Shown one piece after another: positions 39,907-40,793 of a DNA stretch of 64,000 nucleotides. Numbering within the stretch: position 1 is the first letter of the stretch; each line of letters begins with the position of its first letter. The translations under genes and the position numbers were made by a program. This DNA is from Escherichia coli (GTDB lineage Bacteria; Pseudomonadota; Gammaproteobacteria; Enterobacterales; Enterobacteriaceae), in the NCBI RefSeq assembly GCF_016026235.1, contig NZ_CP065613.1, one strand, 5' to 3'. The notes below the pieces were generated by a model. The model had not been told where the DNA came from. It did no database searches and saw nothing but the letters and a program-made list of their open reading frames with translations.

Positions 39907-39999
39907 AAAAAGAGACCGAACACGATTCCTGTATTCGGTCCAGGGAAATGGCTCTTGGGAGAGAGCCGTGCGCTAAAAGTTGGCATTAATGCAGGCTTA
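39907..39999 (-). ncRNA. sdsR: sdsR (ryeB) small RNA, 3' body (about nt 11 to end including terminator), separated from its 5' end by IS1
   Basis: Minus-strand sequence matches my recollection of SdsR from UAAGCCUGCAUUAAUGCCAACUUUUAGCGCACGG onward through the terminal hairpin and U-run. Confidence 0.65.
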
Positions 40000-40054
40000 G
40001 GTGATGCTGCCAACTTACTGATTTAGTGTATGATGGTGTTTTTGAGGTGCTCCA

Positions 40055-40330
40055 GTGGCTTCTGTTTCTATCAGCTGTCCCTCCTGTTCAGCTACTGACG
40101 GGGTGGTGCGTAACGGCAAAAGCACCGCCGGACATCAGCGCTATCTCTGCTCTCACTGCCGTAAAACATGGCAACTGCAGTTCACTTACACCGCTTCTCA
40201 ACCCGGTACGCACCAGAAAATCATTGATATGGCCATGAATGGCGTTGGATGCCGGGCAACAGCCCGCATTATGGGCGTTGGCCTCAACACGATTTTACGT
40301 CACTTAAAAAACTCAGGCCGCAGTCGGTAA
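40055..40330 (+). CDS. insA: IS1 InsA
   Basis: 91-aa ORF identical to copy A InsA. Confidence 0.95.
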
Positions 40331-40752
40331 CCTCGCGCATACAGCCGGGCAGTGACGTCATCGTCTGCGCGGAAATGGACGAACAGTGGGGCTATGTCGG
40401 GGCTAAATCGCGCCAGCGCTGGCTGTTTTACGCGTATGACAGTCTCCGGAAGACGGTTGTTGCGCACGTATTCGGTGAACGCACTATGGCGACGCTGGGG
40501 CGTCTTATGAGCCTGCTGTCACCCTTTGACGTGGTGATATGGATGACGGATGGCTGGCCGCTGTATGAATCCCGCCTGAAGGGAAAGCTGCACGTAATCA
40601 GCAAGCGATATACGCAGCGAATTGAGCGGCATAACCTGAATCTGAGGCAGCACCTGGCACGGCTGGGACGGAAGTCGCTGTCGTTCTCAAAATCGGTGGA
40701 GCTGCATGACAAAGTCATCGGGCATTATCTGAACATAAAACACTATCAATAA
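40249..40752 (+). CDS. insB: IS1 insB reading frame (InsAB' by -1 frameshift)
   Basis: 167-aa frame; differs from copy A at two nucleotides (40255, 40261). Confidence 0.9.
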
Positions 40753-40767
40753 GTTGGAGTCATTACC

Positions 40768-40793
40768 CATTAATGCAGGCTTAGTTGCCTTGC
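40768..40793 (-). ncRNA. sdsR: sdsR (ryeB) 5' fragment (first about 26 nt incl. seed), attached to its promoter side
   Basis: Minus strand reads GCAAGGCAACTAAGCCTGCATTAATG, the recalled SdsR 5' end. Confidence 0.6.

Follow-up and report, generated by a model that had tools for sequence, protein, structure and literature searches.

Two questions arise where a transposable element has landed inside a pair of small-RNA genes: what remains of the pair, and how did the element come to lie between two copies of a 16-bp repeat? Both are raised by a 64,000-nucleotide stretch of Escherichia coli DNA (contig NZ_CP065613.1 of assembly GCF_016026235.1; hereafter, the window), in which a copy of the insertion sequence (IS) element IS1 sits within the sdsR/ryeA locus. 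SdsR (also called RyeB) and RyeA (also called SraC) are small RNAs encoded on opposite strands; SdsR is among the most conserved "core" small RNAs of the enterobacteria. An earlier note on this DNA proposed that the IS1 splits the locus and duplicated 16 bp of it. Analysis of the junctions, of the flanking pieces and of other genomes leads to an account that is very probably correct: one IS1 transposition, in which the staggered cut in the target was aberrantly long, split sdsR and ryeA in an ancestor of the lineage. A single transposition with a 16-bp stagger would account for everything seen.

A small-RNA locus in two halves

In the K-12 RefSeq record, ryeA (272 nt, plus strand) and sdsR (104 nt, minus strand) lie between pphA and yebY. 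The experimentally mapped SdsR start is 1 nt downstream of the RefSeq annotation (PMC6610125), and the mapped start is used for numbering here. The window keeps the gene order pphA-sdsR/ryeA-yebY, as expected for SdsR/RyeB. What it has lost is continuity. A contiguous SdsR unit consists of a sigma-S promoter, about 103 nt of RNA and a terminator; here, the promoter and nt 1-26 are parted from nt 11-103 by the 768-bp IS1.

The sdsR 5' stub, nt 1-26 (GCAAGGCAACTAAGCCTGCATTAATG; 40768..40793, minus strand), is placed by the mapped start (PMC6610125) and remains attached to its promoter. That promoter region (40794..40835, minus strand) is intact, with the -10 element TATTCT at 40800-40805 and a C at -13; the upstream sequence is that of K-12 through -64, and differs only at -65 and -80. 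(Sigma-S dependence is taken from the literature, PMC6610125 and PMC3333887, and not from this sequence.) The sdsR 3' fragment, nt 11-103 (93 nt; 39907..39999, minus strand), is promoterless. It is identical to K-12, belongs to Rfam family RF00111, and includes the intrinsic terminator hairpin, located by a terminator scan at 39913-39941 on the minus strand. The published SdsR map shows two seed regions (seed 1 lies around G26), an RNase E site at nt 31, Hfq sites and the terminator (PMC5137417). Both seeds and all the other mapped elements fall within the promoterless 93-nt fragment.

Likewise, a contiguous RyeA of about 270 nt, running from its sigma-70 promoter to its terminator, is absent. 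Both halves are there, split after nt 131. The ryeA 5' fragment, nt 1-131 (39869..39999, plus strand), follows an intact sigma-70 promoter (approximately 39830-39868, plus strand); over the 100 nt ahead of ryeA, the sequence does not differ from K-12. The ryeA 3' fragment, nt 116-272 together with the terminator (40768..40924, plus strand), is promoterless. Both fragments were placed by mapping to K-12 ryeA and by Rfam (RF00101).

Rejoined across the element, SdsR matches K-12 sdsR with no mismatches (100% identity), and RyeA matches its K-12 counterpart with two. In the left part, Rfam recognizes SdsR_RyeB (RF00111) with 102.8 bits, the gathering score being 38, and SraC_RyeA (RF00101) with 122.2 bits; in the right part, it recognizes SraC_RyeA (RF00101) with 51.4 bits. 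The earlier note had read the minus strand of 39907-39999 as the SdsR body and terminator, that of 40768-40793 as the SdsR 5' end, and RyeA as interrupted. Each of these readings stands, and the alignment to the K-12 pphA-yebY region that it proposed as a check bears them out.

The same locus misleads an automated search. Infernal, run with the Rfam models, calls a full-length, untruncated SdsR at 39907-40012 on the minus strand (model positions 1-100, 102.8 bits). This SdsR looks complete because the native 5' stem (GGC...GCC) is imitated by the final 13 nt of the IS1 left end (UGGCAGCAUCACC). With automated annotation, the disrupted gene at 39907-40012 will be labelled intact and the sdsR knockout hidden.

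A complete IS1

The inserted DNA is a complete, IS1A-like IS1 of 768 bp at 40000..40767 on the plus strand, which agrees with the position and orientation first assigned to it. Its sequence was read throughout and matches both the second IS1 copy in the window and an annotated IS1A over the full length: there are two differences from the window's other copy at 9059-9826 (99.7% identity over 768 bp), and a difference of 1 nt from IS1A (99.9%). The ends are canonical, starting GGTGATGCTGCC... and finishing ...GGAGTCATTACC. The imperfect terminal inverted repeats of about 23 bp that characterize IS1, GGTGATGCTGCCAACTTACTGAT and GGTAATGACTCCAACTTATTGAT, were read directly at both ends: the left repeat occupies 40000-40022 and the right repeat 40745-40767. 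(The right end reads AATAAGTTGGAGTCATTACC, and the left end GGTGATGCTGCCAACTTACTGAT.)

The coding capacity is equally ordinary. An open reading frame for the 91-aa InsA (insA, 40055-40330, plus strand) is joined to the insB' frame (167-aa InsB, plus strand, end at 40752) through the A6C motif AAAAAAC at 40306-40312, a -1 frameshift site. Pfam domains Zn_ribbon_InsA, HTH_Tnp_IS1 and DDE_Tnp_IS1 are on record for proteins identical to InsA and InsB, and a promoter scan recovers the known insA promoter within the left inverted repeat, at 40007-40034. The element thus has the length, the inverted repeats, the insA-insB' arrangement and the A6C site of IS1; the flanking repeat of 8-9 bp is what it does not have. 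A duplication of 8 or 9 bp is typical of an IS1 insertion event, and is not a defining feature of the element.

A target duplicated over 16 bp

The 16-mer CATTAATGCAGGCTTA abuts the IS1 on both sides, at 39984..39999 next to the left end and at 40768..40783 next to the right end; both copies reported earlier were found again when the junctions were re-read. The 16-mer is present exactly twice in the window, with none expected in shuffled sequence, and the window has no third site even at one mismatch. When the left flank (39500-39999) is joined to the right flank (40784-41300), the result equals E. coli ATCC 8739 exactly across the join. In ATCC 8739, in K-12 and in ten further E. coli loci, CATTAATGCAGGCTTA is single-copy, with no IS. 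Because it is single-copy at the empty site, all 16 bp are truly duplicated, and the 784 bp gained at the locus are the element itself (768 bp) and the copied target (16 bp). Moreover, a duplication of exactly 16 bp means that the strand transfers took place 16 bp apart and not at the usual 8-9 bp.

The duplicated target is AT-rich (37.5% G+C). It corresponds to RyeA nt 116-131 and, counted from the mapped start (PMC6610125), to SdsR nt 11-26, as the earlier note had it; in RefSeq numbering, the SdsR stretch is nt 12-27. That note also equated the duplication with the SdsR seed region. This is right for the first seed, the only one of the two that the 16 bp span, and wrong for the second, which lies outside the duplication (PMC5137417). 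The first 8 bp of the 16-mer, CATTAATG (39984-39991 and 40768-40775), form a perfect palindrome.

Could a shorter duplication have been lengthened? Chance identity cannot have extended a 9-bp duplication, since the remaining 7 bp are also single-copy in the empty site; by arithmetic, the probability of a chance 7-bp extension is about 6e-5. Two-step schemes within one chromosome, in which a nearby second IS1 is followed by IS1-IS1 recombination, give shorter repeats or none, and never 16 bp.

The canonical IS1 insertion, reportedly described by Grindley in 1978 and by Iida et al. in 1985, is otherwise closely similar. It shares the 768-bp element, the standard inverted repeats, the insA/insB' A6C site, an AT-rich target and a perfect direct duplication; the difference is 8 or 9 bp there versus 16 bp here. 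Published accounts put the IS1 target-site duplication at 8 or 9 bp (PMC12428005, PMC12903888) or at 8-10 bp (PMC3031569, citing Gamas 1985 and Iida & Hiestand-Nauer 1986). Among approximately 770 trapped IS1 insertions, 591 (78%) have 9 bp and 171 (22%) have 8 bp (PMC10359306). The same study lists five non-canonical events, with duplications of 7 bp (one), 11 bp (one) and 23 bp (three, all of one sequence) (PMC10359306, Table S7). Twenty-one other IS1 copies, sampled from assorted genomes, have duplications of 8 bp (five copies), 9 bp (five) or none (11). The literature and this sample uphold the earlier judgement that 16 bp is atypical for IS1; the 7-, 11- and 23-bp precedents refine it. 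Long aberrant IS1 duplications make up about 0.5% or less, and 16 bp is rare but within a documented class. IS1 duplications of 14 bp have reportedly been seen as well.

The events of Table S7 resemble the present one in being IS1 insertions with a length outside 8-9 bp and a rare long stagger. They differ in that they were selected in the laboratory on plasmid-borne cas genes, whereas this insertion is natural, chromosomal and fixed in a lineage; 16 bp is absent from Table S7. The natural-genome survey in the same paper looked for 8- and 9-bp repeats only (PMC10359306). Surveys of that kind would miss or misclassify a 16-bp case, and natural long IS1 duplications are under-counted because the genome scan was limited to repeats of these two lengths.

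One feature of the target is suggestive. The 9-mer TGCCAACTT, identical to positions 9-17 of the IS1 left inverted repeat, lies on the minus strand at 39977..39985, where it touches the left edge of the duplicated target. It has three matches in the window (0.81 expected). Two are inside the IS1 copies, and 39977-39985 is the sole copy outside IS1. Its bases, SdsR nt 25-33, would pair with the IS1 end in any RNA that read through the element. The chance of some such coincidence, estimated post hoc, is 1-2%. Speculatively, the 9-mer could mean that IS1 proteins bound beside the target, displacing one strand transfer. There is no obvious CCAACTT in the 11- and 23-bp duplications of Table S7, which are listed there without flanks (PMC10359306).

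One lineage

Does the insertion occur elsewhere? A search for it in other genomes of the lineage, suggested earlier, finds both junctions in independent assemblies. The window is 100% identical over 9.1 kb to the 4.56-Mb contig UGFA01000002.1 of assembly GCA_900449985.1, and both junctions are there. Two lineage markers were informative, namely an RsmF allele and a CopD-YebY fusion (described below); the pphA allele is too common to serve. The fusion marker is listed in 35 index blocks, from which 23 contigs were read: four representatives, and 19 others grouped as having the same neighbouring genes. All four representative CopD-YebY contigs, three of them from short-read assemblies, share the right junction. 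The left junction was reached through the rare RsmF allele in an independent Logan assembly, SRR30892832, which ends 30 nt inside the IS1.

Beyond these assemblies, the insertion is in none of 5,426 complete RefSeq E. coli genomes and in no GTDB species representative. A 281-bp query representing the empty locus was covered to at least 80% in one piece in 5,424 of the 5,426; one of the remaining two has no match at all, and in the other the locus is split by IS10. (Among the 5,424 is a genome with 83% coverage in which a prophage sits at the SdsR 3' end.) No IS1 lies at any position in the 281-bp locus in these complete genomes, and they include no 9-bp precursor alleles. Two instances of IS1 near the locus proved to be different insertions, each with a 9-bp duplication: that in JNQH498/497 is in pphA, and that in O111:H8 strain 8E is in a prophage.

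The closest complete genome, FDAARGOS_943, is 99.9% identical to the window over 23 kb and has no IS1 at sdsR/ryeA, so the insertion is lineage-specific and recent. FDAARGOS_943 also lacks the other two IS insertions of the window. Because it has none of the three, all are recent events in an IS-active lineage. The FDAARGOS_943 prophage (from 32038 onward in the retrieved locus) carries the type III secretion system effector gene ipaH3 next to pphA. The lineage appears to be similar to enteroinvasive E. coli (EIEC).

Other mobile DNA also uses this locus. The ryeA/ryeB locus is described as a prophage and island integration site (Balbontin et al. 2008, J Bacteriol 190:4075, as cited in PMC5495878). 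Prophages are integrated in the SdsR terminator hairpin in FDAARGOS_943, CFSAN027346 and O111:H8 strain 8E, where homology to the window stops at 39937. About 240 complete genomes have a second, partial match to the locus; in the three examples examined, these matches lie at prophage ends. The IS1 insertion resembles the prophage integrations of FDAARGOS_943 and CFSAN027346 in that the same small-RNA locus receives mobile DNA. Those integrations are site-specific in the SdsR terminator, and the genomes still have the locus in full, whereas the IS1 lies in the 5' part and splits the gene.

A further parallel is the IS10 (ISVsa5) in sdsR of E. coli 2017-03-3CC (NZ_AP027783.1; 1672-3000 in the retrieved locus), the only other IS-split sdsR among the 5,426 complete genomes. 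It is flanked by a 9-bp duplication, GGCTTAGTT, which shares 6 bp with the 16-mer. Here a different element, with a normal duplication length, independently disrupted the same sdsR stretch. The IS10 target fits the consensus GCTNAGC at six of seven positions.

Predicted consequences of the insertion

The arrangement of promoters and pieces suggests what would be transcribed. From the sdsR promoter, transcription would produce SdsR nt 1-26 followed by antisense IS1 RNA (antisense to insB), as the earlier note foresaw. The 93-nt remainder of SdsR is left without a promoter of its own. On the other strand, RyeA is cut after nt 131, and its sigma-70 promoter would read into the IS1 in the insA sense direction. 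Transcription that crosses the 768-bp IS1 untranslated is expected to stop: IS1 insertions are classically polar whichever way they point, and the antisense RNA is rich in C and poor in G across about 350 nt, with a C/G ratio of 1.2-1.56 at RNA positions of approximately 50-410. A consensus scan of the IS1 left end finds no outward promoter resembling the sigma-70 class. Taken with the literature, this geometry leaves no way to make full-length SdsR; both mature small RNAs, SdsR and RyeA, are presumably lost or greatly reduced.

A further effect, which the earlier note did not mention, concerns pphA (phosphoprotein phosphatase 1; 39116..39772, minus strand). Its open reading frame is intact, with two amino acid differences from K-12. 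The sdsR promoter is the main pphA promoter, acting through read-through of the sdsR terminator (PMC6610125), and pphA is now 784 bp farther from it. The insertion parts pphA from this normal source of read-through transcripts, and stationary-phase expression of pphA is probably reduced.

Which other genes should respond? The SdsR targets named in the earlier note were tolC, mutS and ompD. The first two apply to E. coli; the third does not, its expression being limited to a few species such as Salmonella (PMC5137417). Laboratory-made promoter and deletion mutants of sdsR/ryeA (Choi et al. 2019, PMC6610125; Frohlich et al. 2012, 2016) fall in the same expected phenotype class: both they and the IS1 allele should lack SdsR-mediated repression and pphA transcription driven by the sdsR promoter. 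The IS1 allele differs in being natural and in that both promoters are intact, reading into the IS1 from both sides. In K-12, upstream read-in raises insAB' transcription and IS1 transposition (PMC12428005).

Competing explanations

Several points weigh against a simple loss. A processed form of SdsR, SdsR+31, is active on a subset of targets (PMC5137417). Some SdsR+31 could be released by read-through across the IS1 followed by RNase E cleavage at nt 31, and a weak hybrid promoter may exist, with TTGGCA in the left inverted repeat, a 17-nt spacer and ATTAAT in the flank. A second sdsR copy may lie outside the 64-kb window. Carried further, such doubts lead to a locus that is rewired and not dead: a truncated SdsR, near SdsR+31, would still be made, keeping seed-2 targets and losing seed-1 targets. 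It would arise either from the hybrid promoter, with TTGGCA as the -35 element, ATTAAT (SdsR nt 20-25) as the -10 element and a predicted start at about nt 30-34, or from read-through of the sdsR promoter and subsequent RNase E cleavage. The 93-nt fragment does keep the RNase E site, seed 2, the Hfq sites and the terminator; SdsR+31 alone controls a subset of targets (PMC5137417); and IS1 ends are known to form functional hybrid promoters (Prentki et al. 1986, as cited in PMC12903888). However, the consensus scan yields no outward promoter, the candidate -10 element lacks the conserved A at position 2, and in a read-through RNA the IS1 end AAGUUGGCA is predicted by folding to pair with SdsR UGCCAACUU, around the cleavage site. 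The classical polarity of IS1 argues in the same direction. We consider rewiring unlikely. A bolder version seems slightly less likely again: IS1 proteins were drawn to the target by TGCCAACTT, which moved one strand transfer by 7 bp, and an SdsR+31-like RNA arises through the hybrid promoter or through processing of read-through RNA. Because 16 bp and not 9 bp were copied, the promoterless fragment retains seed 1, the RNase E site and seed 2; if this version were true, a sigma-S-controlled small RNA would become differently controlled, with a narrower target set.

Other alternatives concern the origin and spread of the allele. The insertion may have been selected, either because loss of SdsR/RyeA or of pphA is adaptive in an invasive, EIEC-like life, or because an IS1 behind the ryeA promoter serves as a highly expressed donor that fuels IS expansion. 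Loss of the locus is unusual, given that it is whole in 5,424 of 5,426 genomes; the nearest complete genome has ipaH3 and many ISSso6 copies; and the effect of upstream read-in on insAB' transcription and transposition (PMC12428005) fits the donor proposal. Yet only one such event, in one lineage, is seen, and there is no convergence. Shigella sonnei and Shigella flexneri keep sdsR, going by PMC6385377 and by the alignment in PMC5137417, and read-through reportedly represses IS1 cointegration (Machida 1983, as cited in PMC12428005). Selection is very unlikely on this evidence; in the simplest view, the insertion is a by-product of IS expansion, either neutral or mildly deleterious. As to the 16 bp, two IS1 insertions in the same orientation, 7 bp apart and in different cells, could each have made a 9-bp duplication (GCAGGCTTA or CATTAATGC), after which recombination within IS1 would join the left flank of one allele to the right flank of the other. 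Such an origin keeps IS1 within its normal 9-bp behaviour, and the lineage is IS-rich: the window has two IS1 copies and an ISSso6, and the IS1 copy without a duplication shows IS1-mediated rearrangement. It nevertheless requires two rare hits at one site plus an exchange, and no IS1 was found anywhere in the locus in the 5,426 complete genomes. Furthermore, the junctions are identical in all lineage contigs examined, and IS1 duplications of 11 and 23 bp from single events were observed experimentally (PMC10359306). These points make the two-insertion origin highly improbable. Finally, IS1 is multicopy, and repeats are where assemblies fail, so the insertion and its duplication might be an assembly artefact. 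With the right junction in three short-read assemblies, the left junction in the Logan assembly and both in the GCA_900449985.1 contig, an artefact is rejected, and we assign it next to no probability.

Significance of the allele

A single IS1 transposition with a 16-bp stagger is a known kind of event, insertional disruption by IS1. Its duplication length is atypical but has precedents, and the system is not of a new type. Its interest lies partly in the target. This gene pair is almost never disrupted in E. coli, and the allele is a natural knockout. A lineage without a contiguous sdsR provides material for asking about the roles of SdsR, RyeA and sdsR-driven pphA outside the laboratory. For transposon biology, it provides a natural, lineage-fixed IS1 target-site duplication far outside 8-9 bp.

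Other features of the window

The second IS1, at 9059-9826, has no target-site duplication; its flanks read ...GCCATATCG and GGATTAGTG.... It replaces 488 bp of K-12 sequence (1894052-1894539), including yoaC, a gene that FDAARGOS_943 keeps. This is an IS1-associated adjacent deletion. An element of 1.5 kb from the IS110 family, annotated as ISSso6 in matching E. coli records, lies between pdeD and yoaE at 15316-16832, a site that is empty in K-12 and FDAARGOS_943. Of the 5,426 complete E. coli genomes, only 40 have near-full-length matches to it, and several of these matches are on large plasmids together with IS600 and IS91.

Next to the sdsR/ryeA locus, an in-frame deletion of 81 bp, with the 5-bp microhomology ATCCA at its edges, has taken the stop codon and the 26 codons before it from copD (yebZ), fusing that gene to yebY. 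The resulting CopD-YebY protein has 381 aa (40952-42097, minus strand; junction near 41298-41303), and the exact protein is present on about 20 contigs labelled E. coli. Rfam also identifies two ordinary RNA features, both on the minus strand: the small RNA sroD (3024-3109, 115 bits), and a thermoregulator leader of the cspA type (23956-24416, 136 bits), apparently upstream of a cspC homologue.

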